DNA of 64,000 nt. It comes from Mustelus asterias. Lineage: Eukaryota. Below are positions 24,667-53,377 of this stretch, in pieces (positions within the stretch are counted from its first letter, which is position 1; each line of letters begins with the position of its first letter). The notes under the pieces were generated by a model. The model was not told the DNA's origin. It searched no databases and saw nothing but the letters and a program-made list of their open reading frames with translations. Position numbers and translations under genes: made by a program. The DNA lies in contig NC_135803.1 in assembly GCF_964213995.1 (NCBI RefSeq), forward strand, positions 126,728,001 to 126,792,000, read 5' to 3'.

Positions 24667-24869
24667 ATGTGGAGATACCGGTGTTGGACTAGGGTTGTCA
24701 AGATGAGAGGCCAGATGGACCCCAGGTTATAGTCCAACAGGTTTATTTGAAATCACAAGCTTTCAGAGCGCTGCTCCTTCACCTGACGAAGAAACAGTGC
24801 TCAGAAAGCTTGCGATTTTAAATAAACCTGTTGGCCTATAACCTGGTGTCGTACGACGTTTCAACATCT
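24667..24869. mobile_element. Fold-back Penelope-like element (older subfamily)
   Basis: Arms 24722-24780 and 24788-24846 with a 7-nt loop, diverged outer arm, ~35-nt unpaired tail, TSD TCAATG; degenerate hammerhead at 24779-24815. Confidence 0.8.
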
Positions 24870-25189
24870 TCAATGGTGACAGGAGGGAAAAAAAACTTCT
24901 TTATACAGCCAGGGCTCAGGAACTGGAAATCACCACCCAACTGAGGACAAGATTCAATCCTGGCTTTCAAATGGGAATTTTACACAAGCATTTCCAATCA
25001 CTCCAACAGTAAAGAATGGTCATATTTACATTTTCCCTAAGATCAAAATTTATTATGACTTATGATTTGAAATGACAAAGTTGGCAGCGGGCTGTGCTGG
25101 AAAAGGTAAGGCGCACCTGGAATCCACATCTGGAAAAGGTAAGGCAGTACTAAGTCCAGAAGGGAAGGAGGCAACTTGTTAACACAGCA

Positions 25190-25320
25190 GCGGGCTCAGA
25201 TTGACAGCAGCCACAGCCAATCAGCACAGCGACAGTGGGAGCAGGCACCAATCAGCGGGCGGCAGGGGCGGGCTCTCAGCGTTGCCCGGGCCAGAGTTCC
25301 AAAGGGCAGCAGCGCGCGCG
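25190..25320 (+). promoter_or_regulatory. ACOX2 proximal promoter / CpG-rich region
   Basis: Two CCAATCAGC boxes (25217, 25248; 31 bp apart, NF-Y type), a GC box GGGGCGGG (25265-25272), and the only non-repeat CpG-dense patch in the window, directly before ATG 25321. Confidence 0.75.
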
Positions 25321-25468
25321 ATGGCGTCGTTAGCTTTCGACAGCGGCTCGCGCCCAACCGTTAACCCCGACATCGCGAGCGAGCGGGGGGATCCCACTTT
25401 CCCGCTCGAGAAACTGGTCAACCTGCTGGACGGCGGAGCGGGTCGCACCCGCACCAGGAGGGCTGTCG
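25321..25468 (+). CDS. ACOX2: ACOX2 coding exon 1
   Basis: gcgATGG Kozak-like start. MASLAFDSGSRPTVNPDIASERGDPTFPLEKLVNLLDGGAGRTRTRRAV is an ACOX N-terminus (NPDI..ER...F....L...LDGG). Donor G|gtgagt. Confidence 0.9.
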
Positions 25469-25490
25469 GTGAGTCCCGATCAGGGAACGT

Positions 25491-25700
25491 CCGCGGTCAA
25501 ACCGACAGTTGCATGGCCAGAGTGTGTCCGTTTAAACCGGGGGCTGCGTGGCCAGAGTGTGTCCGGTCAAACCAGGGGCTGCATGGTCAGAGTGTCCGGT
25601 TAAACCGGGGCTGCATGGTCAGAGAGTGTCCGGTCAAACCAGGGGTTGCATGGTCAGAGTGTGTCCGGTCAAACCGGGGGCTGCATGGTCAGAGAGTGCC
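25491..25700. repeat. GC-rich minisatellite, ~6 x 33-37 bp
   Basis: Unit CCGGTCAAACCRGGGGCTGCATGGTCAGAGTGTGT, starting ~22 nt into ACOX2 intron 1. Confidence 0.9.
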
Positions 25701-26051
25701 AATTTCACAATTACAGGATTTAATCCAAAACACTGAATAGACCTGAACTTTTCAGTTAAAGCCTCTAATTTGCCAGCTTGTCCCAAATCCAGTCTGGCAA
25801 AAACTCCCTTAACTAGATATTGGGAAGATTGACACAGTTGTCCTCTGTCCCCTCACTCCTGTCCCCTCGTCACCTCTCTCTGGAAGCTGTCTGCAATCTA
25901 ACCAAATTGCTCCTAACCTTTATAGCCCTATTTAACCGCAACATGATAAGACCGCCTATTTTACTGGTTCCCAAACTGGGGTCCATGAACCAGTAAGACG
26001 TTTAACAACACCAGGTTAAAGTCCAACAGGTTTATTTGGTAGCAAAAGCCA

Positions 26052-26088
26052 CACAAGCTTTCGGAGCTCTTAGCCCCTTCTTCAGGTG
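26052..26088 (-). ncRNA. Minimal hammerhead ribozyme motif (left arm)
   Basis: Mirror image of 26818-26854. Confidence 0.7.
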
Positions 26089-26817
26089 AGTGGGAATTCT
26101 GTTCACAAACAGAGCTTATAAAGACACAGACTCAAATTACATGAATAATGCTTGGAATGCGAATACTTACAACTAATCAAGTCTTTAAGAAACGAAACAA
26201 TGTGAGTGGAGAGAGCATCAAGACAGGCTAAAAAGATGTGTATTGTCTCCAGACAAGACAGCCAGTGAAACTCTGCAGGTCCACGCAACTGTGGGAGTTA
26301 CAAATAGTGTGACATGAACCCAATATCCCGGTTGAGGCCGTCCTCGTGTGTGCGGAACTTGGCTATCAGTTTCTGCTCAGCGACTCTGCGCTGTCGTGTG
26401 TCGCGAAGGCCGCCTTGGAGAACGCTTACCCGAATATCAGAGGCCGAATGCCCATGACCGCTGAAGTGATATTCGGGTAAGCGTTCTCCAAGGCGGCCTT
26501 CGCGACACACGACAGCGCAGAGTCGCTGAGCAGAAACTGATAGCCAAGTTCCGCACACACGAGGACGGCCTCAACCGGGATATTGGGTTCATGTCACACT
26601 ATTTGTAACTCCCACAGTTGCGTGGACCTGCAGAGTTTCACTGGCTGTCTTGTCTGGAGACAATACACATCTTTTTAGCCTGTCTTGATGCTCTCTCCAC
26701 TCACATTGTTTCGTTTCTTAAAGACTTGATTAGTTGTAAGTATTCGCATTCCAAGCATTATTCATGTAATTTGAGTCTGTGTCTTTATAAGCTCTGTTTG
26801 TGAACAGAATTCCCACT

Positions 26818-26854
26818 CACCTGAAGAAGGGGCTAAGAGCTCCGAAAGCTTGTG
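26818..26854 (+). ncRNA. Minimal hammerhead ribozyme motif (right arm)
   Basis: CAC-CUGAAGA-A-GGGGC-UAAGA-GCUCC-GAAA-GCUU-GUG: CUGANGA/GAAA core, helix II hairpin, helix I CAC/GUG, and a palindromic AAGCUU in place of helix III. Confidence 0.72.
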
Positions 26855-27029
26855 TGGCTTTTGCTACCAAATAAACCTGTTGGACTTTAACCTGGTGTTG
26901 TTAAACGTCTTACTGTGTTTACCCCAGTCCAACGCCGGCATCTCCACATCATGACGTCCATGAACCACCCAGGTGCCGTGGTCAACAGTAAGGGAGTGAA
27001 TGACAGCTGCAGGTGTGGCCCGCACAGCT

Positions 27030-27073
27030 TGTGCTCTTGTTCCCTGTGCTCTTGTTCCCTGTGCTCTGTTCTC
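27030..27073. repeat. 15-bp tandem repeat x3
   Basis: TGTGCTCTTGTTCCC repeated about three times. Confidence 0.8.
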
Positions 27074-27080
27074 CAGGCTT

Positions 27081-27164
27081 GATGTGGAGATGCCGGCGTT
27101 GGACTGGGGTAAACACAGTAAGAAGTCTCACAACACCAGGTTAAAGTCCAACAGGTTTATCTGT
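27081..27164 (-). mobile_element. Penelope-like family-1 80-bp 3' stub
   Basis: Tail plus GGTTAAAGTCCAACAGGTTTAT; TSD CAGGCTT(GA) at 27074 and 27165. Confidence 0.85.
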
Positions 27165-27313
27165 CAGGCTTGAAAGCAGGCATTTGTATCTTGCTGATAT
27201 TTGTGAAACTCTATATGCAGCACCTTCGTATGATGACTACTATATAGTATAACTTAGATTGGGAAGGGAGTCTGTGATTATCAATCCATTTGAAAAGGGT
27301 TCGTTCAATTAAA

Positions 27314-27786
27314 CATAGAAACTAGGAGTAGCAGGAGTAGGCTATTTGGCCCTTCGAGCCTGCTCCGTCATCTTTATCATGGCTGATCATCGAATTCAAT
27401 ATCCTGATCCCCTCTTCCTGCCATATGCCTGCTGTGATAGTGGAATCGGACACTTTAGGAACTTTCAAGCGGTTATTGGATAGGCACATGGAGCACACTA
27501 GAATGATAGGGAGTGGGATAGCTTGATCTTGGTTTCGGAAAAGGTTTGGCACAACATCGTGGGCCGAAGAGCCTGTACTGTGCTGTACTGTTCTATGAAT
27601 CTATGAATCCCTGATCCCTTTAGCCCCAAGAGCTATATCTAATTTCTTGAAATCACTCAACGTTTTGGCCTCAACTACATTCTGTGGTAGTGAATTCCAC
27701 ACATTCACCACCCTCTGGGTGAAGAAATTTCCCCTCGCCTCAGTTCTAAAAGGTTTACCCCTTATCCTCAAACTATGACCCCTATG
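27314..27786 (-). mobile_element. CR1 3' fragment containing a second CR1 3' fragment (27427-27606, + strand)
   Basis: Outer copy matches 1140-1425 and has TSD ATTAAA; inner copy matches the reverse complement of 6142-6320. Confidence 0.85.
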
Positions 27787-29187
27787 ATTAAAGTTTGAGA
27801 ACCACTGGCCTATTTCAATCTCCATAACATCCACCGACCTTGCTAAATCACTCATCAATACCTTTGCTAATTCCCAACTTGATTGTTCCAGTTTTAAAAA
27901 ATATTTTTTACTCCATCCTTAAAATTACAAAGCCAATGCTCAGAGTGGAGCAGGCAAATCCAAATCCATCCCTTGCTTGCTCCAAAAACCAAATTCAAAT
28001 TAAATCCACTCGAGGTTTCTTCAAGAGACAAACAAGATCCAAGCTGTCTGACCAGTCTTCCATATTCTTCTGTCTGTAAGCCTGAGTCATCCAAAGTTTT
28101 GCTGTCCCTTTGTTAATCACACCATTAACTCATGTTAACTATGTTAATTGTGTTTCACTGAAGTTATGAGCATTTGCGGACTGAAAAATGTGCATTATAA
28201 GCAAACGATTCCTCAACTGCTGAGCACACTTCCATGTCTCCAAGTGGCAGGGATTGCAATCTAGGTAAAATGATGTTAATAAGGTTATTCTACAGACCAT
28301 CTATTAAGGGAAGTGGAGGAAAACTCTGTAAGCTATCTTAACTACCCCCAAACAACTGGCATAAAGAGGGATAAGAGTTTTTACAATGTATTCAGGACAC
28401 CTTTCATAGCCAGTATATAAGGAGCACAAGAAATGAATCAGATGAACACAAGAAATTGGAACAGGAGTGAACCATATGCTCTGCTATTCAGTACAACCAT
28501 GGCTGATCTCAGTCAGCTCCACTTTTCTGCCCGCACCCTGTGATCCTTTTGTTCCCTAATGACCAACTATCCTTCTGTTTAGCTGGTGGAACTAATAATG
28601 GGAAATGAATCAGAACAAATAACGGATTGAAGCTTAACAGAACATACAAAATTTTAATTGGCAATGCAAGTTGAAGATAAAGGTTGGAAAAACATAAGTA
28701 AGGCAAAAAATGTAGTCGATTAGGGGAAAGAAGCAGATTTTGAGGAGACGAGAACAAAACTAGGGCCAAGAAATGGGAAAAAGATTGAAAAACAATCAGT
28801 GGGAACTATTTTTGTTTAAAGTGATCAACAAATTTTAGGAGAAATACATTCCACTAAAAAGCCAAAGAGCAAACTAGCCAATAATGAAACACCATGGATG
28901 AATAAAATGGTAGGGACAGAATTGAATCTAAAGAAGGCATACACTGAAAACATGGACAATAAAGGAGGAAATGGCAAAGGGAATACAAAGAGGTTAGGAA
29001 ATAAATAAAATGAACAAATAGGAAGACAGAGAAACTACAAAATTATGTTATGAAGTATTATGAAAAGAAATAGTGAAATATCCTACAGGTGCATAAATAG
29101 CAGAAGGTAAAGCAGGATAGGGATGGGCCACTAAATGATGTACAAGATAAACTCACCAGTAATGGGGCAAAATGACAAAAGTATTAG

Positions 29188-29435
29188 AACCATTGAATCC
29201 CTACAATGCAGAAATAGGCCCAGCAAGCTTGCAGCAACTCTGAAAGAACATCCCACCCAGGCCCTCCCCTCTGTTCCATCTCCGTAACCCCACACGTTTA
29301 CTACGGCTAATCCACCAAACCTACATGTCTTTGGACTGTGGGAGGAAACCGACGCAGGCACAGGGAGAATGTGCAAATTCCACACAGCCAGCCACCCAAG
29401 TCCAGAATTGAAACCAGGTCCCTGGCGCCATGAGG
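29188..29435 (-). mobile_element. HE1-like V-SINE, partial
   Basis: V-domain and type A tail, with an internal deletion. Confidence 0.8.
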
Positions 29436-29489
29436 TATTAGATCATTACTTTTCCTCTATTTTTATCAGGGAGACTAACAAGGTGGACA

Positions 29490-29940
29490 TTTTTGATTTG
29501 ATTTGATTTATTATTGTCACATGTATTAACATACAGTGAAAAATATTGTTTCTTGCGCTATACAGACAAAATATACCGTTCATAGAGAAGGAAATGAGAG
29601 AGTGCAGAATGTAGTGTTACAGTCATAGCTAGGGTGTAGAGAAAGATCAACTTAATGCAAGGTAAGTCCATTCAAAAGTCTGACAGCAGCAGGAAAGAAG
29701 CTGTTCTTGAGTCGGTTGGTACATGACCTCAGACTTTTGTATCTTTTTCCCGAAGGAAGAAGGTGGAAGAGAGAATGTCCGGGGTGCATGGGGTTCTTAA
29801 TTATGCTGGCTGCTTTGCTGAGGCAGCGGGAAGTATAGACAGAGTCAATGGATGGGAGGCTGGTTTGCGTGATGGATTGTGCTACATTCACAACCTTTTG
29901 TAGTTCCTTGCGGTCTTGGGCAGAGCAGGAGTCATACCAA
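29490..29940 (-). mobile_element. Rex1/Babar LINE 3' fragment
   Basis: ORF 29652-29966: WY..CSAQDRKELQKVV..AQ.I....LPS...HPGHSLFHLLPSGKRY....RLKNSFFPAAVRLLN, the typical Rex1/Babar C-terminus; (AATCA)n tail. Confidence 0.9.
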
Positions 29941-30129
29941 GACATGACTTTAGGAGAAGAAATCATAAAAGATACAAGGACGTTTAAAATAGAAAGGGGA
30001 ATATAATTGATATATTAATAAAAACCTAGAGACAGTGAAGCCCAGGGTCTGAGTGGATTATATCCAGGCATACTAAAAGAGGCCGGGGAACAGATAGTAG
30101 CATTACTATTGTATTTCATCCTGCAAAGC

Positions 30130-30437
30130 TATAGAATCCTACACTGCAGGAGGTCATTTGTCCTATTGAGTCAGCACCGACCACAGCCCCACCCAAGCCC
30201 TATCCCCATGCATTTACTCTGTTTAGTACCCCTGACATTAAGGGGCAATTTAGCATAGCCAATCAACCTAACCTGCAAACGTTGGACTATGGGAGGAAAC
30301 TGGAGCACCCGGAGGAAACCCATGCAGACACAGGGAGAATGTGCAAACTCCACACAGACAGTGACCCAAGGCTGGAATTGAACCCGGGTTCCCGGCGTGT
30401 GAGGCAGCAGTGTTAACCACTGTGCCACCATGCCGCC
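30130..30437 (-). mobile_element. HE1-like V-SINE (tail type A)
   Basis: Full head, V-domain and tail. Confidence 0.88.
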
Positions 30438-30504
30438 AGGACAGCATGTTAAGTCTTTCTAGCAGTTGATAACTTTACCAACATATAAGCTAAATAAACA
30501 ACTT

Positions 30505-30632
30505 AATAAACAAAAGTAAGCAAAATGCTGTGGATGCTGGAATCTGAAACAAACCGGAGAATGCTGGAAAAGGTCAGCAGGACAGATGCTGCCAGATTTG
30601 CTGAGCTTTTCCAGCATTCTCTGTTTTGTTTC
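30505..30632. mobile_element. Fold-back element, Penelope-like family 2
   Basis: Arms TGAAACAAACCGGAGAATGCTGGAAAAGGTCAGCA and TGCTGAGCTTTTCCAGCATTCTCTGTTTTGTTTCA, ~40-nt unpaired tail, exact 13-bp TSD AAATAAACAACTT (30492-30504, 30633-30645). Confidence 0.75.
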
Positions 30633-31277
30633 AAATAAACAACTTGTCCTTTAGAACAGACTTTAGTAACTGGCATAGTCTTCTGCATTTATTCTGGTCC
30701 TCTGTTAAAAGTACAATTGCCAATCAGAACATCCTCCAGTTGTTTTTAGAGGCATCTACCTATTTGACTGTTTATGTATAATATTGAATACTTTCCTGCT
30801 CCTGCTCAAATGACCAGTATGCCCAGGCTGAAATTACCTGAAGGTGCAGGCACATTGGTTAATGAAGCTTTAATTTTGTTTGAGAAGTGAAAGCTGCAAG
30901 ATTAATCAAGTTTAGTCAGAATACTTCATCTCCTGATTGGAAACAATATTACACAATTTCTTTTGCTTATTTAAGTATGGAATGTTATTATAGATGAGAA
31001 AAAATAACTTGTTTTCAATTTTTGTTTAAAGTTCGGAAAAGTATGAGGTTTCAATTCTTGGAGTATGGGAACTGCTTGAGCTAAACAGCTGCTGGAGGAG
31101 TGGAGGCTAGGGAAGAAAGGGAGGAGGGTGCAATAAACAATATAAAATATATTCCACAATTTTGGGGCTTTATGTATAATGAGTAATTCAGTATCCGTTT
31201 TGAACTTTACAGGAATTGATATGTTAATCAAAAATTTAAATATATTTTACTTACAATATTTTTCTTTGTTTTGTCAG

Positions 31278-31440
31278 ACCATCTTGTCAATTCTGATGCT
31301 GTTTTCAACGAAGAAAATGTGTATTTCTTGACGCAGACTGAGCGATATGAAGCAGCTGTAAAAAGAGCTGTGCATCTTCGGCAGAAGATGAAGAAATTGG
31401 GCTGGACTGATGATGGGCCGGAGATAGAGTTTGCTTTTAG
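31278..31440 (+). CDS. ACOX2: ACOX2 coding exon 2
   Basis: ttgtcag| ... AG|gtattg; DHLVNSDAVFNEENVYFLTQTERYEAAVKRAVHLRQKMKKLGWTDDGPEIEFAFR; phase-compatible. Confidence 0.92.
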
Positions 31441-32109
31441 GTATTGCTTTTAAACAAAAAATGCCAATGTGTTCTTTGTAAGAGCCCTTTTACAGAAATT
31501 GTACTTTTCTCCTTCCCCAAGTGTATCACCCACAGTAAGAAATCTACTATCAGGCCTGCACAAGCTATGCATTGAAACAGGCCCACGGGAAGTACATGAG
31601 GTATTTGGACCCAAATATTCATATCTCGCTGTGGAAAAATTCCAGTCAGACACTGCTGAATAGAATCATAGCTAATATCAAAAATAAACCATATGGTAGA
31701 GTCTACAAGTTCAAAGACATTTATCAACACATTGAAGCATAGTTGCCATTCAATTTAAGGTCGAAGTGAGAATGTTGCTTAAAATATAAATGTATTCTTT
31801 TTAAGAACACTAAACCAATGGTGTATGGCAAGGTTCCATTTACTGAAAGACAGACCATAAAAGAATCAAGCTGTTTGACACTCAGTAATAGGCTACAATC
31901 TCAAGCCCTTATCTGCAGAGCGTGATGCTAGAGTCAACAGGTGGGAGTTATTGAGCTGGTTTAGCATCCGGGTCTTACTGAGGTCATTCATAAAGCAGGT
32001 CTTCATATATATACACTCAGGCATCCACTTTCATCTCTTCAGTTTATACACATCAGGTAATGGGCAACTTGATAATTTCTTTAAACACAGTTTCAGATGA
32101 GTCTGGTGT

Positions 32110-32376
32110 TTCTTTTATTCATTCGTGGGACATGGGCATCGCTGGCTGGCCAGCATTTATTGCCCACCCCTAGTTGCCCTTCGAGGGCAGTTGAGAGTCA
32201 ACCACATTGCTGTGGGTCTGGGGTCACATGGAGGCCAGACCGGGTAAGGACGGCAGATTTCCTTCTCTAAAGGACATTAGTGAACCAGATGGGTTTTCTG
32301 ACAATCGACAATGGTTTCACAGTCATCAGTAGATTCTTAATTCCAAATATTTTTTTGTTTTATTGAATTCAAATTC
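32110..32376 (-). mobile_element. tRNA-headed SINE family 3, head truncated
   Basis: Homologous to 59830-60085; its 3' tail matches the 3' end of the LINE at 63650-63735. Confidence 0.85.
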
Positions 32377-32389
32377 TATCTGTCTTTAG

Positions 32390-32544
32390 GGCCCTAGGAG
32401 GAAATGTGGCCTTTGGAGTCCACAATGGAGTCTTTATACCAACAATCACAGAACTGGGAACAGATGCACAGATTGCAAAGTGGGTTCCACTGGCTAAGGA
32501 TTACCAGATTATTGGAACTTACGCTCAAACGGAGCTAGGCCATG
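32390..32544 (+). CDS. ACOX2: ACOX2 coding exon 3 (GC donor)
   Basis: tctttag| ... CATG|gcaagt; ALGGNVAFGVHNGVFIPTITELGTDAQIAKWVPLAKDYQIIGTYAQTELGH, containing the conserved YAQTELGHG motif. Confidence 0.92.
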
Positions 32545-33193
32545 GCAAGTGGACAATTTGATATACTTGAACACTGTTTACCAACACAATTTTATATTGC
32601 ACCTTTGATTTAAGCTTTATAATTTTACAAAATCAAATTGCAGGGCACTTCACTGTTAAAATTTTAGTAAAAAAGTCAGCTGCTAAGTGAAACTTTGGGC
32701 TTCAGCATACTATGATTCAAAGCAGAGGTAGCAGTTTCTATTGTGAATTCCACACTATGAATTCTGATCTTGATTATGCAAGCAATTAATTACATTCACA
32801 TTGGCTCCTTTTTGAAAGTGATGATTAACAAACAGATTGAAATTAAATTGTAAATTCATTAATTAGTAGTCTGCACCAGTAGCTGGTATCTAGCTGGTTC
32901 ATAAATATTCATTATAATTGAGGTAGTTGGATATTATTCCGTTTCAATTGGATAAACATAGCTTTCAGTTCAGGATATTTAGTATGATCAGCACCTCTGT
33001 TGAGCAGTGTAACAAGCTTTACTGAACTCAGCAGTGCTGCTGAACCTGAGACAAGCATATTAACTGAACCTGAAATTTGTCTGTTTAAGTGATAACAACC
33101 AATAAGACTTTATGACAGTAAGGTAGTCAACCTTTTGTTTCCGACTGTGATCTCTTAAACTTTCCACATCATGTACCTGCTGTTTATTTTAAG

Positions 33194-33301
33194 GCACGTA
33201 CCTTCGTGGACTAGAGACAACGGCAACCTTTGACGCTTTCAGCCAGGATTTCATCCTCAACACACCAGAAACATCCTCGATAAAATGGTGGCCTGGTGAC
33301 T
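33194..33301 (+). CDS. ACOX2: ACOX2 coding exon 4
   Basis: ttttaag| ... T|gtaagc; [36 protein letters not shown](L). KWWPGDLG is the ACOX2-type motif (ACOX1 has KWWPGGLG). Confidence 0.93.
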
Positions 33302-33796
33302 GTAAGCCTCTGAGATATCAATCTCACTAGACTTATAAGTTATTTATTTCTACCTATTTTTATACTTGACCATCGAATTACTTCGAGTAGAAACTTTAAG
33401 AAAATTAACATACATTGTACTCCAATAATTTTTTACATGAATGGGTTGTGAGATATTCCATGTTTTACAGCCTTACAGGTGCTACATAATTGCAAGATGT
33501 TGATATATGATAGGCTGGACCTTGTTGGAGCGGGGTGTCTCTCAATGCACGCTCTTAAATTAGATCTTTTTCTGCACACTTTATCATAATAGAATTTTAC
33601 ATCATTATTTGCTGAAAGTGCAAACTGATAATGGTGAGATGATGGAAAGAGGGTCTCTTGGAGCTTAGTGAATGACAGAATCAGTAGTGCATTTAACCAG
33701 TAAGATTTAAGTATTAAGAAAGGAATAATGAAGGAGAGTGAAATGGAATCAAATCTGGTACAGAAGAGAAAAAGGGTGGATTCAGAGAGAGAATAG

Positions 33797-34679
33797 AACC
33801 ATAGAAAATTACAGCTCAGAAACGGGCCTTTTGGCCCTTCTTGTCTGTGCCGAACCATTTTATGCCTAGTCCCACTGACCTGCACTTGGACCATATCCCT
33901 CCACACCCCTCTCATCCATGAACCCGTCCAAGTTTTTCTTAAATGTTAAAAGTGACCCCGCATTTACCACTTTATCCGGCAGCTCATTCCACACTCCCGC
34001 CACTCTCTGCATGAAGAAGCCCCCCCCTAATATTCCCTTTAAACTTTTCTCCTTTCACCCTTAACCCATGCCCTCTGGTTTTTTTCTCCCCTAGCCTCAG
34101 TGGAAAAAGCCTGCTTGCATTCACTCTATCTATACCCATCAAAATCTTATACACCTCTATCAAATCTCCCCTCAATCTTCTACGCTCCAGGGAATAAAGT
34201 CCCAACCTATTCAATCTCTCTCTGTAACTCAGCTTCTCAAGTCCCGGCAACATCCTTGTGAACCTTCTCTGCACTCTTTCAATCTTATTTACATCCTTCC
34301 TGTAACTAGGTGACCAAAACTGTACACAATACTCCAAACTCGGCCTCACCAATGCCTTATATAACCTTACCATAACACTCCAACTTTTATACTCGATACT
34401 CTGATTTATAAAGGCCAATGTACCAAAGGCACTCTTTACGACCCTATCCACCTGTGACGCCACTTTTAGGGAATTCTGTACCTGTATTTCCAGATCCCTC
34501 TGTTCAACTGCACTCTTCAAAGTCCTACCATTTACCCTGTACGTTCTTCTTTGGTTTGTCCTTCCAAAGTGCAATATCTCACACTTGTCTGCGTTAAATT
34601 CCATTTGCCATTTTTCAGCCCATTTTTCTAGTTGGTCCAAATCCCTCTGCAAGCTTTGAAAACCTTCCTCACTGTCCCT
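33797..34679 (-). mobile_element. Young CR1 LINE 3' fragment
   Basis: ORF 33984-34736 (WQMEFNADKC, LVRPSLEYCVQFWSP); TSD AGAATAG. Confidence 0.92.
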
Positions 34680-35013
34680 AGAATAGGTAGGAAAAATAAG
34701 AGAAAAAATGAATCTCTCAGCAACAATTTCAAACACAAGGACGCATTAAATTGTTCTCTTTCTGGGCCAGAGAAATTGGCATTATCTGTTATCAACCTTA
34801 GTTAAAAGAATATTTATGCTTTAACTAGTGGACACAACTTTCCATGGTGAGAGTAATGGTCAATTGATGGGTAAATACAGCAAGTTCTTAAAAGGAACAG
34901 GAAAGCTCAGGGTGAAGCAAACCATGTTGAGCAAATTGACCAGTTTGGAGGATAAATATCAATGATCTATTCATTTGAAAAGTCTTCATGCAGTCTGTGT
35001 TTTCTACTCTCAG

Positions 35014-35133: not shown

Positions 35134-36859
35134 GTAATATGCTGCAGGTTTTAATTTCCTTTTAAAAGGCTCTTCAGCAATAAAGCCTGTTGTTTTGTTC
35201 TGAGAAGGGTGGGTTATAATGAACACTATTGTGATTGTTATGCTGATATGTATGGAACCATATAACATGCATACCACTTAAAATTTGTATAAGTAGGGGA
35301 CACAGGCACAAAGTTGTGTACTCCTTGTTCCATGCCCAATACTGCGGTTGATATTTTGAATTAAACAAGAATATTGCTGCTCCTTGATTGTGATGTGGGA
35401 AATTCTTTTAGGTGGCCTGATTAATTTAAATTCTTTTCATTAAACATTTCATTTCACAAGGGCAAAAAAAAGTTTATTCAGTTCAATGAAATTCTTCAAT
35501 TAAACTAGTTTTTATTAAAACATTGAAATGTTAGAATCAAAAGCATTACAAATTAACAATATTCAAGCAAACATACAATTAGGACAAGGCAAATGGGAGA
35601 TCAGTGGTACTACCTACACAGTTAATGAGCTGGCAGGCTTTCACAAAAGATCTCAGATTTCATGCCAAAGAGCAGAATTGGTTATAGTTTTCGTTATCAG
35701 ATTATACAGCCCAGCACTTAATTAAGAGCAATTTCATTCATTCACTGTTCCGTCAATCTAACAATGGCATGTCCTTCAATTAATCATATTTTGACACCTT
35801 CAAATATTGATCTGTCATTCGTCTGCCCGTTTTATGGAAGTTCTCTCCCAAAAATGGCTTCTTAGATTCAGCATTTCTCTAACTAGTTTAAGCTCTAATA
35901 CCAAAAGACACCTTTATCTTTTGGTATTATCACCTGGCCTGGGTAATTTACTTTGTTGCATAATTTGTGCCTGACTTGTGCTGGTATCTTTCATGAATAC
36001 ATCTTTCATTTTACTGGCATGTTACAAATTCATTTCTTAGAGACATTATTAAGATGTTACTTAAATATTTTGTATTATTTTCAAACCATATATTAAAACA
36101 TTAGCTGCTAATTATCCTCATGTTGGGTATTTAGAATTAATCAGAATTCTCAACTACAATAGGAAGTGCTTGTTGGACCAAATGAGGCCATTTTCTCATC
36201 AGCACAGCTGCATATTTGAGTGTAAACAAAATAAATCTGAATACTTATTAAAATTTGGTTGGTGAGAACAAACATTGTTCTAAATCTATGACTAAAATAG
36301 CCCCTTAACGTGCACAGAATTTTAACTGCCAAGGAGATTTGAGTGCGAGTGGGGAAGAGGGGTTAAAACCCCAAAATAATGGCATCAGGTTGGGAACCCG
36401 ACTTATCCCACTCACTTCCGGGTTTAACCTGGTTGGTTTGCAAACGAGCAGGAAATCCCTGGTGATCTGTCAGGTAAATAATAAAAATATGTAAATTCCC
36501 AATTAACTCAGGATTTAACTCATAATTCTGGCTTTAACAGCCAGCATGTCGATTTCTGGAGTGGTGTGGAAATTTGCCAGGGTCAAGGCAAAGTGGAGTT
36601 GAGGGGTGGGGGGAGTCACGCTCTCTTTATATGCACCAGTTGCCAAAAGGTAAGTTTAAAATTCCAGTTTGTGTGTTAGGTACGTTGCTGAGGTCATGGG
36701 GAGAATTAGGTTCAGTGAACGTGTGAATACCCAACCTGATTCTCCCTATGACCTCAGCAACCACAACCACCTCTCCCCCAACCCCCCCCAACCGATATAC
36801 TATTTTACCCACCTACCCACTTTCCTACCTGAAATGGCCTAGCAATCTATTTGGCTGCA

Positions 36860-36970: not shown

Positions 36971-37014
36971 TAAACACATGCTATGGCTAATGTATTATTA
37001 AAATTTGGTTCCAG

Positions 37015-41215: not shown

Positions 41216-41219
41216 TGAG

Positions 41220-44050: not shown

Positions 44051-44057
44051 TTATGTC

Positions 44058-44430
44058 CTGATTCCTCCAGGACAAGTTGGTGATCTGGACATCTAGAAAC
44101 TTGAAACTCTTGACCACTTCCACTTCATCCCCATTACTGTGGCCAGGGGCATGTCCTCCACTACGCTTCCTGAAGTCAATGACTATCTGTTTCATTTTGT
44201 TGACATTGAGGTAGAGATTATTGTCGTCCCACCATTTCACCAGATTCGCTATCTCCTTCCTGTACTCTCATCATTGTTTGAGATCCGACCTACTATGGTG
44301 GTGTCGTCAGCAAACTTGAAAATCGAATTGGAGGGGAATTTGACCAAACAATCATGGGTGTATAAGGGGTATAGTAAGGGGCTGAGGTCACAACTTTGTG
44401 GGACACCAATGTTGAGGATAATCGTGGAGG
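44058..44430 (-). mobile_element. Rex1/Babar RT fragment, inverted relative to 41220-42065
   Basis: KFADDTT.VG, LNVNK.KQIVIDFRK and VKSFKFL on the minus strand; continues where the + piece stops. Confidence 0.85.
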
Positions 44431-44431
44431 A

Positions 44432-44750
44432 CTAGACAGGGTAGATGCAGGAAGAATGTTCCCAATGGTGGGGGAGTCCAGAACCAAGGATCGTAGTCTA
44501 AGAATATGGGGTTAACCTTTTAGGACTGAGATGAGAAATTTATTCAACCTGAGAGTAGTAAGCCTGTGGAATTCACTAGCAAAGAAAGTAATTGAGGCCA
44601 AAACATTGTATGTTCTCAAGAAGAAGTTAGGTATGGCACTTGGTGTGAAGGAGATCAAAGGACATGGGGGAAAGGCAGGATCAGGTGATTAAGTTGGATG
44701 ATCATAATGAATGGCAGAGCTGTCTTGAATGGCCTACTCCCCTTATTTTC
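44432..44750 (+). mobile_element. 3' end of the old CR1 that starts at 39630
   Basis: LDRVDAGRMFP..GESRT.. remnant plus a CR1 3' UTR. Confidence 0.8.
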
Positions 44751-45559
44751 AATGTAAGTCTCTTTACAGAAGTGTTGATCACACCTGAAGAAAGTAAGAA
44801 TTTTTAAGACCAGAAAAAGTCATGACGTTCAACAAATTCATTATTTGGCTGATTGATCAACCCACTTACATGCTTTCTCAATATATCCCTTCATCGCTTC
44901 TTTCCTGAAATGCATGTAACTGTCTTGATGCCAGTTACTGTATGCTTTTTCCTTAAAAACTTTTTTCTGGTACCATGCTACCCACCAAGTGGAAAACAAT
45001 TCACCTGGCATTCTTTCTTGCTCCTAATTTCTTTATTTTGATCTAGGGTGCTCTTGCATTTGAAACATTATCGGAAATGAACACTATGGCTAAATCATTT
45101 TCACCTGTCATTTCTGTAATATAGAGAGCTTTAATTACAATTACACTCATTCTCTTTTTCCAAAAGGAAATAAATACAATTTTTGTAACCATTCCTAATA
45201 TCTCATATTCCTAATGCAGTTTTCTTGGTTAGCCCATCTTTATACCATTTCATAGGCTGTAAAACCCTCCAATTTCAAATGAAACCTGGATACTACACCA
45301 GATGTGGTGAGACCAATATCTTATAGTAGTCTGTCTACACTGCTCCATCTCTGCTAATACTTGTACTTTTTTTTTTCCTCGTTGCAGCCAAGTTAAATAA
45401 TGTTCACATTAGCAATACAACGACAAACTGAATTGTCACACTATTATGCTTAAAGGGAATTTGTTCAAGTGAGGGTAACATCTAACAAAAATCAAGCTAA
45501 GTCAAACATAAACCAGTTAAAATGGCAGATAATATCGGGACTGATTCTATTTTCTGTTT

Positions 45560-45700
45560 CTATAGCTCTTGGGGCTAAAGGGATATGGAGGAAATGTGGG
45601 ATCAGGGTATTGAATTTGATGATCAGCCATGATCAAAATGAATGGTGGAGCAGGCTCAAAGGGATGAATGGCCTACTCCTGCTTCTATTATCTATATTTC
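45560..45700 (+). mobile_element. CR1 3' tail fragment
   Basis: Reverse complement of the 1140-1290 type tail. Confidence 0.75.
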
Positions 45701-45754
45701 TAACTTGTGTATTAACATTTCAGCTTTGATTTTGAAGTTGTGATCTGTCCTTAG

Positions 45755-45920
45755 TGAAATGGAAGCAAAGATTTTAGACTACCTGACCCAGCAACAGAAA
45801 CTTCTACCTCAACTAGCAACAGCTTTTGCCTTTCATTTCATGTCCTCATCCTTGGAAACCTTTTGCAACCAAGTAAAAGTACAGATCAAAACCAAGGGAG
45901 ATGTCTCTTTGCTGCCTGAG
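45755..45920 (+). CDS. ACOX2: ACOX2 coding exon 8
   Basis: ccttag| ... GAG|gtaaga; EMEAKILDYLTQQQKLLPQLATAFAFHFMSSSLETFCNQVKVQIKTKGDVSLLPE. Confidence 0.92.
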
Positions 45921-46392
45921 GTAAGATAATTTGTCTTGTTGCTCTACAGGCCGAGCAGCGTTTTCTCTGAACAATAAAGTGAATTGAAACAATTGCATCT
46001 GTAATACTGCCATTTAAAATAATTGGTTAAAAAATTACAAGCTATGCCACAATTTATCTTCTGCTGTACATATTATCTGTGGTGATTTCCTAAGAAATTG
46101 CTCATGGTGTGTCTGCTGCAGATGTGCTGTTTTATGTCATGTAATACAAACATACAAGTTCTGAGCAGGGATAGGCCATTGCTGCGTGATTTGATCGTGA
46201 CTGAGATGATTGTCAGCCATGCCAAATGGCTGACATTTGTCATTCTATTTTTCTGTCTCACCCCTATAACCTTCGACCCCCCCCCTCCCCATTTTTAATA
46301 AAGAACCTATCAAATTCAACCTTTAAAATAATCAAGAACGCTACCTCCATTGCTTTCTGGGGAAAATGATTCTATACATAAATGATCCTGTG

Positions 46393-46866
46393 AGAAGGTT
46401 CACCAGGTTGATACCGGGGATGAGGGGTATAGATTATGAGGAGAGATTGAGCAGATTAGGTTTAGAAGGCTGAGGGGTGATCTTATAGAGGCATATAAGA
46501 TAATGAAGGGGCTGGATAGGGTAGAAGTGGAGAGATTCTTTCCACTTAGAAAGGAAACCAGAACTAGAGGGCACAGCCTCAAAATAAAGGGGGGTCAGTT
46601 TAGGACAGAGTTGAGGAGGAACTTCTTCTCTCAGAGGGTGGTGAATCTCTGGAATTCTCTGCCCACTGAAGTGGTGGAGGCTACCTCGTTGAATATGTTT
46701 AAGTCACGGATAGATGGATTTCTGATCGGTAGGGGAATTAAGGGTTATGGGGAGCAGGCGGGTAAGTGGAACTGATTCACTTCAGATCAGCCATGATCTT
46801 ATTGAATGGCGGGGCAGACTCGAGGGGCTAGATGGCCTACTCCTGCTCCTATTTCTTATGTTCTTA
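46393..46866 (+). mobile_element. Young CR1 3' fragment inside an older minus-strand CR1 (~46150-47035)
   Basis: Highly similar to 43565-44050 apart from a short internal deletion. Confidence 0.92.
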
Positions 46867-48304
46867 AAATGTCTCCCCATCTCAGCCTTAATTGGGAGAC
46901 CCTTTTCTTTAAAACTGTGTCTTCTAGTCCTAGTCTCTCCCAGAAGGGGAAACACCTCTGTGTCCGCCCTGTCAAGCTCACTCAGAATCTTGTATGTTTT
47001 AATAAAATCATTCTCATTCTTCTAAACTCCAATGGTTACGGCATACAATATATCACCAGTGTTTGTGGCTTATGGTGACTCGAAATATGTGAAATAGCAA
47101 TTTTGCTCCAACTAATATGGGAGGGTTGGTGGTGCTTTAATATAACACAAAAAACTTCAAAGTGGATTGTGTGCTCAAGTCCTGGAATGGAACTTGAAAT
47201 CTGCGACTTTCCGATTTGGAGGATGGAATTATTGCACTGAACCCAAACGGACATTAGTAATAAAAGTTTTGGAGAATATTTGAAAAGAATACATAATGCA
47301 TTCATTTCAACATGTTAACAGCATTTCTGGGTAAAGTAAAACAGGCTTAAATTTGCTGTGATGTGTCAAGCAGCTCAATTTTGCTTGTTAGAGAAATTAT
47401 GTTTTTTTTCAGATACATGATTGGAACTTCACAAAGTTGAAATCATTTCAGTTTAGTGGTTTAGGCTCAGTTCCCTAAAGGACACATCATTGACCACACA
47501 GAAAAGGTGAAAGCTTAATGTTTGGAAGTGTTTAATTGTATCAGTCTTCATCTCCCAATGTGATGGACAGGATGCAGAGACTAGCTGATCAACTGATTCC
47601 TTTGGAAATTCATATGAAATTCTGTAGGTAGTTTAATTAAGAAACTTGCAATATTATAAATTCAAGATCTGGAAAGATCACCAGTAACTTTAATTTCAGA
47701 ATGTTATGATGTACAGATCTAATCTGGCTCACTTTTTATTTATTTGTCCTTTTTTTTCCTTTTGACTGCATCTCAGAGTCTTTGACCTTTTCCTTGAGAT
47801 TTAATTAAAAACAAAACTTGAATATTTTAAGAGTTCTCGGATGGGCTTTGGCTCATATGATTTTAGTTGTGTTCTCAATATCATGGGCAAAAAACCTCCT
47901 ATATCTTAAAATCTGCTGAGGCAGTTAAGTTGTGTCAGAAGTTGAATCACCTCTTTCTGTCTAATTTGCAGTATTCCAGACTGAACTATTTCTTTCTTGG
48001 ATTTAAGATTACCATTTGTAAAATGATTGTTCTTAATCTGAACGTATAATCCAGTGTGTAACGAAAACACAGAAAGATACCTTTTCATTTAAATTCATTT
48101 ATTACATTTCAGATGTGGTAATTAAGATGGCAACTGCAGCAGTGAATTTGCCGTGTGTTTCTGAAAGACATTGATCATGAGAGAAAACCTTAAATGAGCA
48201 TTTCATGTTTAAATGCAGAAAAATATTGATTTCCATTAACACATCTGCCAGTAAATCTAATATTGCTCACGATCTCATTCTAGAATATCTGAGACTTGCA
48301 GTAA

Positions 48305-48680
48305 AAATGCTAGAGATGTTCAAAATCATGAAGAGTTTAGACAGGTTAGATGGAGGGAAACTCTTCCCATTTGTGGAAGGGTCGAGAAACAGAAGATACC
48401 AATTTTGGATGCAGGCAAAAGAAGTAAAGATGACATGAGGAAAGACTTGCACAGTGTAATTAGGATCTGGAATGCGCTGCCTGAGAGTGTGATGGAGGCA
48501 TTTCTAAATGTGGCTTTCGAAAGGCAATTGAATAATTATCTGAGGAGAAAAAGTTTGCAGGGCTCCGCGGAAAGTGGGGGGAGGCATGGGACTATTCAAG
48601 TTTCCCTTGCAGAGAGCTGACACAGACACGACAGGCTGAATGACATCCTTCTGTGCTGTAACCATTCTGTAATTCTAAAT
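48305..48680 (+). mobile_element. Old CR1 3' fragment
   Basis: EMFKIMKSLDRLDGGKLFP, IWNALPE and a tail. Confidence 0.75.
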
Positions 48681-48834
48681 ACTGTCCATATGTAGAATCA
48701 GTGCTCAAATTAAGGAGGATCCTAAGCTTTTAGTAACAACTATCCTGTCAGACTAGCATAGGAAGAAGTTAAAGTGATGTCCTGCAGGGGTCAGTACTTG
48801 TTTGTAAACTAGTTCTGCTTTATAGGAATGACAT

Positions 48835-49790
48835 AGAGACTCAGAGACAAAATGGCACAAAAGGAGCCCATTCTGGCCCTCTGTAGAACAATCCAGTCAA
48901 TCCTATTCCTTCACTATCTCCATAGCTCTGCAGGTTCATTTCCCTTAAATGCGCATTCAATTTCACTTTGAAATTATTGATCATTTCTGCTTCCAACGTC
49001 CACGTAGACACCAAGTTCCGGGTCATTACTACTCACGGGACTAGCTTAGGGGTTAAAATAAAGGGGCGGCATGGACAAGTTGGGCCGAAGGGCCTGTTTC
49101 CATGCTGTAAACCTCTATGACTTTAAGCTCTTCCACATTTCCCTGCTGCACCACTTGCCATAACCTTAAATTCCTTGTCCTTTTACCATCAGCTTTATTT
49201 TTGTCTACCTTATTTAAACTTGTCATAATTTTGTACCATGTATCAACTCAAATTTGTTTTTTTAAAATTAATGTCACAAGTAGGCTTACATTAACATTCA
49301 ATCTTTAACACACCCCTCAATCTGTTGTGCTCCGGGAACAGCTCCAGCTTCTCCAACCTAACATGTAACTAAAATCCCTCATTCCTTGAACCTTCCTGCT
49401 GAATCTACTCTGCACCATCTGATAGACCCTCACATCATTCCTAAAGGGTAATGATCAGATCTGGACACAGTGCTCTAGTTGTGGCCTAACCAGAGCTTTA
49501 TAAAGGTTCAGCATAACTTCCCTCCTTTTACTCGGTAAGAAGTCTCACAACACCAGGTTAAAGTCCAACAGGTTTATTTGAAACCAATTAGTGATTCCAA
49601 ATAAACCTGTTGGATTTTAACCTGGTGTTGTGAGACTTCTTAGAGTTCTGACCCCAGTCCAACGCCGGCATCTCCACCTCATGGCCTTTTATACTCAACA
49701 CCCATATTTATGAAGCCCAAAATTCCATATGGTTTGCTAACCACACAGTCAAATGTCCTGCCGCATTCATGATCTATGCATATGGACCTC
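48835..49790 (-). mobile_element. Old CR1 fragment with several nested insertions
   Basis: Degenerate CR1 3' half, interrupted by a + strand CR1 tail (~49040-49122), a SINE tail (~49260-49296) and a fold-back Penelope. Confidence 0.7.
49533..49684. mobile_element. Mini fold-back Penelope-like element
   Basis: Arms 49536-49580 and 49598-49642, ~40-nt tail, TSD CCTTTTA. Confidence 0.85.
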
Positions 49791-50504
49791 CAGCGATTAG
49801 AACTCTGATGCAGAAACAAATTAAACGTTACTTTTTTGGTACTTTTTTGCAAATTTGTACAAATGAGAGAGGATGCAGTTAAGTCTTTTCAGAAGGATTT
49901 GAGTCAGTAATGCAATTGGCCAGACAAATGATAAATTCAAGTTTCTAATATTGCAGCATAAAGTCTTACTAATGGAAGTAGGTGCCATGTAAATATAATG
50001 GAAATTGAAAGACAATTAGGAGATGGAGATTTGGAAGGTGATCTAGGAGTAATAATAGATCAAGCACTTCTGAATTGAATTGAAACAAATGTTGGGATAG
50101 AAAGACAGAACATGACTATAAAACATATGATGATGCACTGGTCAAACTGCGTGCTTCCATTCTGGTCACCATCCTACAAAAAGGATGCATGCCATTGGGA
50201 GAAGATAGAGGGTACAATATGTGATCATTTTAATATGTCTGTTATGAAATTAAACCTGTGTCCTCATACATACCATATGATTAACAGTTATCTCTTTGTT
50301 ATAACATGGGAGCTGAAATGCTTAAGACATTACTCTGAAAGGATGAAAACCCCATGACACTAGGCTAGTGTATACTCAATACACTAATAATCAGATTACT
50401 TGCTGCTAAAATTATATGCAAAAAAGAGACACAGCCAAACACGCAGAACAACAATGAAAATAACTTGGGATTTACATGCTGTCTTCACTGTACAACAATA
50501 AACA

Positions 50505-50807
50505 GGCAGCATGGTGGCACAATGGTTAGCACTGCTGCTTCACAGCACCAGGGACCTGGGGTCAATTCCCAGCTTGGGTCACTGTCTGTGTGGAGTCTGC
50601 ATGTTCGCCCCGTGTCAGCATGGGTTTCCTCTGGGTGCTCCGGTTTCCTCCCACAGTCCAAAGACGTGCTGGTTAGGTGCATTGGCCATGCTAAATTCTC
50701 CCTCAGTGTACCCAAACAGGTGCCGAGTGTGGCGACTAGGGAATTTTCACAGTAACTTCATTGCAGTATTACTGTAAGCCTACTTGTAACACTAATAAAT
50801 AAACTTT
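50505..50807 (+). mobile_element. V-SINE, tail type B
   Basis: Full head, V-domain and type B tail. Confidence 0.88.
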
Positions 50808-51528
50808 ATCCCAGATAAATGGAAATTAGTTGAGGTGGCTGAATGTCTTAAAAGCGGAGACAGGGTGGGGAAGTTTAATGTGCATTGCAGTACCTAAGAC
50901 CCATACAGCTAAAGGGACTGCTGTCAGAGTCTGACAGAAGGAGAATACACCATAGTAGTCCAAGTTCCTGAGGGTTGTAGCCTGTAGGTTAGGGAGGAGT
51001 GAGGCACGAGAGGGAATTAGACACGAGCATGAAAATTAAAAACTGGAGCTCATCAGGGACATGAGCCAATGCAAATCAGTAAGGTCAGTGTTAGACCTGG
51101 TACAGGATACGATATAAGCAGCAGCGTTTGGTTGAACTATGCAGTGGAGAATGAGATACCAGCCAGTCGAGTTTTATGAACAGTTGAGTTTGGAGGGGAT
51201 AAAGAAATCGGTGAGGTTTTCGACAGCATGTGGTCTGAGACAGGGGCAGAGGTGGATGATATAAACTGAAAGTGGTCTATCCTGAACAACTTGTCTCTCA
51301 AATATCGTCATTAAAACAAATGATTTGGTCACTAATCTTTGTTCCTGGGATTTTATTTTACATAAATTGGCTGCTGCATTTCCTTATATTACTGTACTTT
51401 AAGTAATCCATGGTCTGTGACCCATTGGCTGAGAGATTAAATATTGGCCAAAAAAATACTTTCATGGGAAATGAAAACTGCTAATGTGGAATCCACCAAC
51501 ACTTGTCCAACTCTTAATTTCTCTGCAG

Positions 51529-51719
51529 CTCCATGCCTTGTCTGCAGGCCTGAAAGCAATCATCTCCGACAACTGCAGTGCTGGAGTCGAGCTGTGTCGC
51601 AGGGCTTGTGGTGGCCATGGTTACTCAATGCTGAGTGGTTTACCCTCTCTTTACACTCTGGTGGTAGCTTCCTGTACGTACGAAGGAGAAAACACTGTAA
51701 TGCAATTGCAAACTGCAAG
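51529..51719 (+). CDS. ACOX2: ACOX2 coding exon 9 (catalytic Glu)
   Basis: ctctgcag| ... AG|gtatga; [10 protein letters not shown]...[17 protein letters not shown]...[17 protein letters not shown], with the CGGHGY motif and the catalytic YEGEN. Confidence 0.95.
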
Positions 51720-51775
51720 GTATGAGTGGAAACCGACTGTAAATATTTTGAGATTACTCTATAAGTCTGTGTCAA

Positions 51776-51929
51776 ATAGAATCCCTACAGTACAGAAGGA
51801 GGCCATCCGGCCCATTGAATCTGCACCGACCACAGTCCCAATCAGACCCTATTCTTGTAACCCCACACATTTACCTTGCTAATCCCCCTGACACTTGGGT
51901 CAATTTAGCATGGCCAATCAACCTAATCT
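51776..51929 (-). mobile_element. HE1-like SINE 3' half
   Basis: Matches 17400-17550; lies ~55 nt downstream of ACOX2 exon 9. Confidence 0.85.
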
Positions 51930-52180
51930 AGTATCTATTTATGTTGTGTCTGAAAGCATACAAATCTATAGAGAAATATATTAAATATTTAACAGCACAA
52001 CTGTTGTAATTTGGAAGATTAGGTACCTTTGACATTCCAACCCACTGCATTTACAGTGTGCTGTACCATAGTTGGCCATATATATATCATGTAGAGATGC
52101 CGGCGTTGGACTGGGGTAAACACAGTAAGAGTTTTAACAACACCAGGTTAAAGTCCAACAGGTTTATTTGGTAGCAAAAG

Positions 52181-52217
52181 CCATTAGCTTTCGGAGCGCT
52201 GCTCCTTCGTCAGATGG
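52181..52217 (-). ncRNA. Minimal hammerhead ribozyme motif
   Basis: Minus strand reads CCAU-CUGACGA-A-GGAGC-AGC-GCUCC-GAAA-GCUA-AUGG. Confidence 0.75.
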
Positions 52218-52260
52218 AGTGGAAATCTTTTCACTGGATCCACTGGAGTGGATTTCCACT

Positions 52261-52297
52261 CCATCTGACGAAGGAGCAGCGCTCTGAAAGCTAATGG
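52261..52297 (+). ncRNA. Minimal hammerhead ribozyme motif
   Basis: CCAU-CUGACGA-A-GGAGC-AGC-GCUCU-GAAA-GCUA-AUGG. Confidence 0.72.
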
Positions 52298-53377
52298 CAT
52301 TTGCTACCAAATAAACCTGTTGGACTTTAACCTAGTGTTGTTAAAACTCTTACTGCATATATACATCACCCAGAGGAATAAACTTGCATCAACCCTTCAG
52401 TTCTTTATTCCATAAATTCTGGGTCAAATTATTCTGCAGTTGCAGCTCCAATCTATGCACAAGATTTCCTGCTTGCTTCTGCATCAGACTAGCATTCAGG
52501 ATACTCTTCACTCCTCAGAACCTGCTGTTGAAATCTCGGTAACAGTCCAAACTCCAAGATTCCCTCTATTGACACCACAATCTCGGCCCAGTTCCAAGAT
52601 CAGTGCCTTCAATCCAATCTTAGCTGTTGACAAGTTAGATTTTTGAGTCTGGCTTGGCCCCCACAGAAACCAAATAAAATTATAGGAAATGATGGACTTT
52701 CCAAATTGCTGTCTAGTAATGCTCAATTTCTGCTAGTGCAAATCTTAATGTTGACAGTAATTTATAAACTACAGTAAATCAAATACTGTCTCTGGTAGTG
52801 TAGTATTTGTGATTTCTTTTAACTTGAATGGATGAGGGCCTTAAATAGATTTCTCAAGTGGAGTTAGCTGTTTAAACATCTTAGCTATGTAATGCAAATA
52901 GTTAAAGCTAACTATTGTTGAAAGAATTTATGCAACTACCAGAGTATTTGTTAAATTTTATTCTCCTATTTTGGACCATAAAGAACTTGCAATACAATAA
53001 TAACAAAAATCTGGGCACCAGAGATAAATTAACTTTGGAAATATATTTAATATACAAATTATTATAAGCATGCAAATACATTTGTTATACTCGCAATTAG
53101 GATAGCCATTTGGGACTAAGAGCTATACCGTCAATGATAGTTTATGATGAAGCAAAGAACACATGACTCCATCTTATATATTTTATTGAGATATGCCTAT
53201 TTTGGTTGCAGAATATGATGCAATCATAGCACAATATGATATTCTTTTGTCTAAGCCTGAAAAAACAATTCACTGAAGTTTTGCATTTTGAATGGCCTGT
53301 CCTTGGTGTAAAATTATTGTTATCATGCACCATTGCTTCTCATTTTATCTAGCCTCAGTACTTTTCCATCAAACAAC

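Follow-up and report, generated by a model that had tools for sequence, protein, structure and literature searches.

A 64-kb window of contig NC_135803.1, the whole stretch of DNA analysed here, contains four fold-back insertions of one repeat family, which we call family 1 and assign to the Penelope-like retroelements (PLEs). The window is vertebrate DNA of 41% GC and is rich in repeats, and on the named protein relatives, found in Mustelus, Heptranchias and Scyliorhinus, its host is shark-like. We identified 11 segments of family 1, comprising the eight arms of the four hairpins (A, B, C and D) and three simple copies; a second family, family 2, has two hairpins and one simple copy. All counts below refer to this one window.

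The four hairpins lie where an initial annotation of this DNA had placed them and are 152-965 nucleotides (nt) long (Table 1). The arm lengths it gave for B, D and C were confirmed, and A is decayed. B has arms of 449 nt with no mismatch and a 40-nt tail on the right, D has arms of 105 nt with three mismatches and a 33-nt tail on the left, and C has 45 nt of paired arm with one mismatch and a 39-nt tail on the right. In A the arms are 84% identical across the core (24718-24850) and diverge near the outer end, with a tail of about 34 nt on the left. One arm therefore stops short of the element end in all four, as had been described, leaving an unpaired tail of 33-40 nt at one end only. The 3' ends of the element face outward on both sides of every hairpin and adjoin the target site duplication (TSD). 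Subfamily variants are common to both arms in B, C and D, and B and D are two closely related young copies. The folding energy of D (-203 kcal/mol, z -27) merely restates the palindrome.

Table 1. Family-1 and family-2 features of the window (positions numbered from its first letter; a point marks features with no strand).
Feature	Positions	Strand	Description
A left TSD candidate	24661..24666	.	6 nt, weak; repeated at 24870-24875
A tail-bearing arm	24667..24782	-	tail about 24667-24700; inner end in hammerhead stem II
A short arm	24781..24869	+	7-9 nt further 5' than tail arm; 2-nt microhomology; decayed hammerhead core at 24783
B left TSD	25981..25992	.	12/12 against 26956-26967; final 2 nt common to arm start
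B short (tail-less) arm	25991..26468	-	GIY-YIG C-terminal codons 26468-26301, 3' untranslated region/pseudo-long terminal repeat (pLTR), hammerhead core 26085
B tail-side arm	26467..26915	+	equals 25991-26439 over 449 nt; hammerhead core 26821; first 2 nt common to other arm
B one-sided tail	26916..26955	+	40 nt
B right TSD	26956..26967	.	
C left TSD	49524..49533	.	pairs with 49685-49696 given a 2-nt deletion
C short arm	49533..49590	-	45 nt well paired from 49536; innermost ~10 nt degenerate or filler
C tail-side arm	49589..49684	+	tail 49646-49684 (39 nt); no hammerhead core
C right TSD	49685..49696	.	
D left TSD	52077..52089	.	12/13 against 52356-52368
D tail and tail-side arm	52090..52234	-	tail 52090-52122 (33 nt); 7 nt longer inward than short arm; hammerhead core 52213
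D junction filler	52235..52250	.	16 nt; 52244-52250 repeats the neighbouring end of the short arm in inverted orientation
D short arm	52251..52355	+	ends at TCTTACTG; hammerhead core 52265
D right TSD	52356..52368	.	
Simple 5'-truncated family-1 copy	4179..4724	-	546 nt, 38-nt tail, GIY-YIG C-terminal piece, hammerhead core 4307
Simple tailed family-1 stub	9162..9274	-	TSD 9/10 at 9152-9161 and 9281-9290
Simple tailed family-1 stub	27083..27160	-	TSD 9/9 at 27074-27082 and 27165-27173
Family-2 fold-back	4081..4787	.	left tail 43-44 nt; TSD 14/14 (4067-4080, 4788-4801); interrupted by the 4179 copy
Family-2 fold-back	30505..30633	.	left tail up to 40 nt; TSD 12/12 (30493-30504, 30634-30645); short arm 15 nt further inward
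Simple tailed family-2 copy	5997..6092	+	

Family 1 is almost certainly an endonuclease (EN)-bearing PLE of the Neptune/Nematis type; the Penelope identity proposed in the initial annotation is borne out by GIY-YIG homology, a diagnostic linker, the hammerhead and the insertion architecture. The B arms and the simple copy at 4179 encode the last 55-66 amino acids (aa) of the element protein, and the 55 aa of the B arm are 85% identical to the C-terminus of a shark reverse transcriptase (RT)-EN protein, P0004. The coding piece has 23 matches among 33 candidates, the named ones being from sharks. In a listing of 23 cluster members, examined for an N-terminus that would match the ATG at the tail end, the longest entry has 697 aa and is named as a host-gene model. 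Domain searches revealed RVT_1 in P0004 and GIY-YIG above the Pfam cut-off in P0002, and a Pfam search of the two protein fragments of the window alone returned no family. The fusion of a C-terminal GIY-YIG domain to RT that marks an EN+ element is seen in these relatives, the window itself holding only the last 55-66 aa. By eye, P0002, P0004, P0005 and P0009 have the two cysteines of the CCHH motif between GIY and YIG, in a region upstream of the window copies. P0004, P0005, P0009 and P0011 have a C-x4-C-x2-C linker between RT and EN. In the available text of PMC8557442 a CX2-5CxxC linker at this place is the mark of Neptune/Nematis and is absent in the Penelope/Poseidon clade, so the linker points to the Neptune/Nematis type and away from Penelope/Poseidon.

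A motif scan detected six minimal type I hammerhead cores with a palindromic helix III in the pLTR, compared with 0.16 per shuffled window. Stem I has 3 bp in five of the six, and a compensatory change from CAC/GTG to CAT/ATG distinguishes subfamilies; these features agree with PMC4209133. B and D each have one predicted, intact-looking core per strand, and C has none. Searching Rfam at gathering score gave no match, hammerheads included, and exact-pattern scans for the pLTR core found no stretch in viral, metagenome and prokaryote genome contigs. A metagenome profile scan (199 candidates) gave one locus (L001, 166-702) with a distant PLE-like endonuclease region (44%), no fold-back and short direct repeats beyond it, which was not used.

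That each fold-back has a TSD of its own, as initially annotated, is true of B (12/12 positions) and D (12/13); the TSD of C is imperfect and that of A weak. In C, 10 nt match 12 nt only with a 2-nt gap (49524-33 vs 49685-96; ungapped score 7), and A has 6 nt, three of which could belong to the element end. When 3000 random flank pairs were scored, with the match required beside the boundaries, a score of at least 6 was reached in 2.2%, at least 7 in 0.5%, at least 9 in 0.07% and at least 10 in none (0/3000). The TSDs of B and D are thus far above chance, that of C modestly so, and that of A weakly. Lengths across the four hairpins are 6-13 nt. In both B and D the TSD encloses both arms, the arrangement on which the initial annotation had made its interpretation depend.

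The 'fixed outer boundary' of the initial annotation needs qualification: the tail end is not one base but is spread over about 8 nt (tails of 33-40 nt in the hairpins and of 33, 36 and 38 nt in the simple copies), whereas the short-arm ends are clustered. Those of B and D lie exactly at TCTTACTG, that of C 0-3 nt inside it and that of A at about +3/+4 by alignment, so that all fall within about -3 to +4 nt of one site. Were ends distributed uniformly over ranges of 100 to 40 nt, four of them would fall inside 7 nt with a probability of 0.001-0.015; placing A at +4 widens the span to 8 nt. All four hairpins combine a tailed with a short end, and each of the three simple copies has a tail. Under a model in which every primer picks its start site independently, this distribution has a likelihood of at best 0.012, or 0.026 when A is left out and 0.0016 when family 2 is included. 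Because the pattern is improbable under independent choice, the start sites look ordered.

The inner junctions carry further information. The 27-nt stretch at 26440-26466 of B, previously read as a loop separating the arms, is instead part of the element and prolongs the left, tail-less arm: the alignment with the 4179 copy runs on across it, and the match to P0004 begins at residue 588 on that arm vs 597 on the other. The tail-less arm of B consequently extends 27 nt further inward, and 2 nt are common to both arms at the joint. The same surplus is seen in A, where the tail-less arm is 7-9 nt longer in the 5' direction and the joint has 2-nt microhomology, and in the family-2 hairpin at 30505 (15 nt), making three of the five resolvable hairpins, from two families. 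The 16-nt filler of D includes a 7-nt inverted copy of the short-arm end with a 2-nt loop; fillers of this kind resemble templated end-joining scars. The tail arm of C starts 0-2 nt from the predicted hammerhead cut (49589-49591), as if from cleaved RNA, a coincidence of one in 11 inner ends that may be due to chance.

Family 1 is a shark example of an insertion pattern already described for PLEs. The available text of PMC3846280 reports inverted pLTRs, mostly head-to-head, with a 31-bp tail and TSDs of 8-10 bp (31 bp and 9 bp in Pen2a_Av), and proposes self-priming on an antisense template. That of PMC8557442 gives an inverted copy with a one-sided 30-40 bp tail as typical of the class, ascribes the tail to EN-mediated resolution, and calls these features of the life cycle still undefined. 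The family-1 hairpins display an inverted 5'-truncated copy, a one-sided tail of 30-40 bp and a TSD, and share with canonical EN+ PLE insertions the head-to-head orientation, the single TSD and the pLTR hammerhead (PMC3846280, PMC8557442, available text). They differ in that both halves are cut to 150-965 nt, with no intact open reading frame (ORF), in their shark-like host, and in having inner endpoints tabulated for each arm. What the present hairpins add is small, a set of testable junction rules that bear on a mechanism still undecided. Our literature search, outside of which lay most subscription papers and Repbase/Dfam, found no paper applying twin priming to PLE inversions or describing these shark hairpins.

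Given this anatomy, the simplest model, which we consider fairly probable, is that the hairpins are separate, dead-on-arrival, 5'-truncated PLE insertions formed by twin priming from both nicks at two fixed sites of the RNA. The RT-GIY-YIG protein would nick the two strands of the target with a stagger of about 9-14 nt, from which the TSD would arise, and both target 3' ends would prime cDNA on the element RNA. One cDNA would begin at a distal site, the tail end with its spread of about 8 nt, and the other 33-40 nt upstream of it, at a fixed site corresponding to the end at TCTTACTG. Both would copy the same 3' region, halt early at independent points and be end-joined, the joint showing either microhomology of about 2 nt or a short filler copied from a template. 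The product would be a head-to-head hairpin tailed at one end only; where the distal site alone primes, a simple tailed stub would result. Outward 3' ends against the TSD are what would be expected if both staggered nicks prime. The identity is shown by homology, and the geometry, TSDs and junction anatomy by the DNA itself; we infer priming from both nicks, its order and the route of joining. Formally, the process would be L1-style twin priming with internal duplication and a fixed second start site.

The two-primer idea of the initial annotation fits this junction anatomy and also in vitro data on an anole PLE, Poseidon_Ac (PAc) of Anolis carolinensis, although self-priming with resolution remains its main rival. 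According to the available text of PMC11167929, both strands are cut and extended in that system, two RT start sites with a spread of about 8 nt bound the tail, a dimer is predicted, and the template is needed to +172. PAc differs in belonging to the Penelope/Poseidon clade, which has no CX2-5CxxC linker, and in starting inside the ORF, whereas the tail here ends at a candidate ATG; inverted insertions are not modelled in that text. In LINE-1 twin priming, too, both nicks prime one RNA, microcomplementarity joins the products and a TSD surrounds the inverted insert, with internal duplication arising when the first cDNA passes the second primer (10.1101/2024.08.27.596794, available text). There the second primer site is variable, set by chance pairing and usually far from the 3' end (same text); in the family-1 hairpins it would have a fixed place, 33-40 nt away from the first, with nearly the whole insert duplicated as a result.

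Several points weigh against twin priming at fixed sites. The sample is four family-1 and two family-2 hairpins from one window; among these, the TSD is weak in A and gapped in C, and the two arms of A diverge towards their outer end. The surplus in D lies on the tail arm (7 nt), where local self-priming is seen, the family-2 hairpin at 4081 also has the longer tail arm, and the joint of C is ambiguous: either filler connects the arms, or they meet in a 4-nt palindrome that coincides with the hammerhead cut site. Family 2 is probably another PLE end, on architecture alone, and the short ends of its two hairpins, lying 13 nt apart, show no fixed proximal site in this family. Five pLTR and tail stretches fold no better than shuffles (z -0.6 to +0.7), and we therefore claim no start-site stem-loop. 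The in vitro data concern a Poseidon-clade element for which no difference in start sites between strands was seen (PMC11167929, available text), whereas the ordered pattern here implies a difference between strands. Finally, for one RNA stretch to be copied twice, either the first cDNA would have to be displaced or a second RNA would have to take part.

The alternative that survives best, which we regard as possible though doubtful, is a single priming followed by self-priming, through cDNA snap-back or on an antisense template, with the short end produced by an endonuclease resolution cut 33-40 nt inside the end. It accounts directly for the subfamily variants common to both arms and for the constant pairing of tailed and short ends, and with resolution it explains the ordered pattern as well as twin priming does. 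The joint of D can be described as a 7-nt inverted copy-back with a 2-nt loop, and the arms of C may meet at a 4-nt palindrome; in addition, the D. virilis endonuclease required the tail sequence for recognition (PMC11167929, available text). In the same text, however, in vitro RT starts fall at both tail boundaries. A second arm longer in the 5' direction than its template (B, A and 30505) would require extra trimming; since copy-back from the tail arm predicts that the tail-less arm never exceeds it in the 5' direction, simple snap-back is disfavoured.

It is improbable that the hairpins postdate, or stand apart from, one integration, through two insertions at one site, inversion, gene conversion or, for B, an assembly artefact. 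The B arms are 100% identical, with no read support here, nesting does occur in the window (the 4179 copy within family 2), and the arms of A differ near the outer end. Against such origins, B, D and the two family-2 hairpins each have a single TSD around their pair of arms (0/3000 random pairs), the flanks are not mirrored, the D arms differ at 3 of 105 sites, and the tail-and-short form is common to six hairpins in 64 kb.

About as improbable is that some hairpins are non-autonomous units, transcribed and re-inserted whole in the manner of MITEs (miniature inverted-repeat transposable elements) or of retrozymes, the latter having been suggested in the initial annotation, because the inner junctions differ in all four, as do the lengths, no tandem family-1 array is present among the six Tandem Repeats Finder (TRF) rows of the window, one hammerhead per strand (none in C) yields no doubly cleaved monomer, and, by analogy, the anole template must extend to +172, past the main start region at +111-118 (PMC11167929, available text), whereas the hairpins, as we read them, stop at start sites. 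In its favour, B and D keep intact-looking hammerhead cores, PLE-derived non-autonomous retrozymes occur in vertebrates, including the sole chondrichthyan genome sampled (10.64898/2026.07.22.740005, available text), and four copies of different subfamilies give low power to detect a repeated junction, the sign of mobile units for which the initial annotation had asked.

Non-LTR retrozymes resemble the hairpins in being derived from PLE pLTRs, non-coding and equipped with a type I hammerhead, but consist of tandem units arranged head to tail, at least two successive ones having complete hammerheads (10.64898/2026.07.22.740005; PMC6155905, available text), whereas these hairpins are head-to-head, with their cores on opposite strands. 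MITEs are short, non-coding sequences with a strong fold-back, flanked by a TSD. The description 'MITE-like' is apt for the shape of the family-1 hairpins, but these are retroelement-derived, and among the window copies we found neither symmetric terminal inverted repeats nor uniform size (152-965 nt), a fixed TSD (6-13 nt) or a repeated unit. PLE hairpins of this kind can be mis-annotated as MITEs.

Beyond twin priming itself, we entertain as an unlikely extension that the hairpins, which make up four of the seven family-1 insertions, are a programmed product, in which a dimeric RT-endonuclease would hold one RNA by two fixed start sites and prime both nicks in fixed order on a roughly symmetric, tail-like target, such as the CCCAG-bearing flanks of B and D described below. 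If so, insertions in shark genomes would form a natural archive of sufficient density to decide the origin of Penelope inverted repeats and tails, and introns would continue to be seeded with long, perfect double-stranded RNA hairpins. Should the junction rules hold genome-wide, sequence alone would separate twin priming from self-priming with endonuclease resolution, and the two in vitro start sites would be tied to inverted products.

Several observations concern the target and the tail. CCCAG adjoins the outer side of the TSD on three of four flanks, the two of B and the right one of D (25971-25980, 26968-26972, 52369-52373), and also occurs within the tail; for any 5-mer found three times among 16 flanks P is 0.001 at a fixed position and 0.11 with five positions of slack, the CCCAG pattern having been picked post hoc. 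The target of B is pseudo-palindromic, and its short-side flank has 8 nt in common with the tail (P 0.0035). We rejected target-tail complementarity as a general rule: it is above chance in B only, with P 0.17-0.98 in the other five of six hairpins. ATG stands at the extreme tail end in three of seven tails (26950-26955, 49680-49684, 4179-4183), where the ORF of a following tandem unit may start. Arm and tail pair through a conserved 8-bp inverted repeat (26879-26886 / 26926-26933, and in other copies) that encloses the short-end site.

The three non-palindromic stubs of the same end that had been noted at 4179, 9162 and 27081 all exist. A TSD was sought for the 4179-4724 copy and none was found; this copy is nested in a family-2 fold-back, at an apparent decayed hammerhead. 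The tail arm of A (24782) and the 9162 stub (9274) have an identical inner end base, in hammerhead stem II. For both family-2 hairpins the TSD score was reached by none of 3000 random flank pairs, and the window copies of this family gave no coding match and no hammerhead core passing the scan.

The hairpins B, C and D probably lie within introns of a + strand acyl-CoA oxidase gene, to judge from a strongly matching exon at 51547-51720 and a putative first coding exon at about 25321-25470, for which the match is weak (E 0.07). If B is intronic, its transcript would carry 449 bp of perfect double-stranded RNA, with any effect being putative. A 35-bp tandem array of 5.9 copies (25494-25698) lies directly past the putative first exon. 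For the stretch 49700-52070, 23 sequencing runs were listed as containing part of it, two of them with at least half of its words and none listed as RNA; we draw no conclusion from these runs.

Elsewhere in the window, an exon with a DUF1151 match was identified at 7779-8111. An imperfect, single-copy hairpin at 36684-36761 (77%) is related to neither family 1 nor family 2. A perfect 137-bp tandem duplication at 62834-63109 reflects a recent event or an assembly artefact. Two overlapping frames at 20502-21337 resemble what we take to be a decayed hAT-type transposase.

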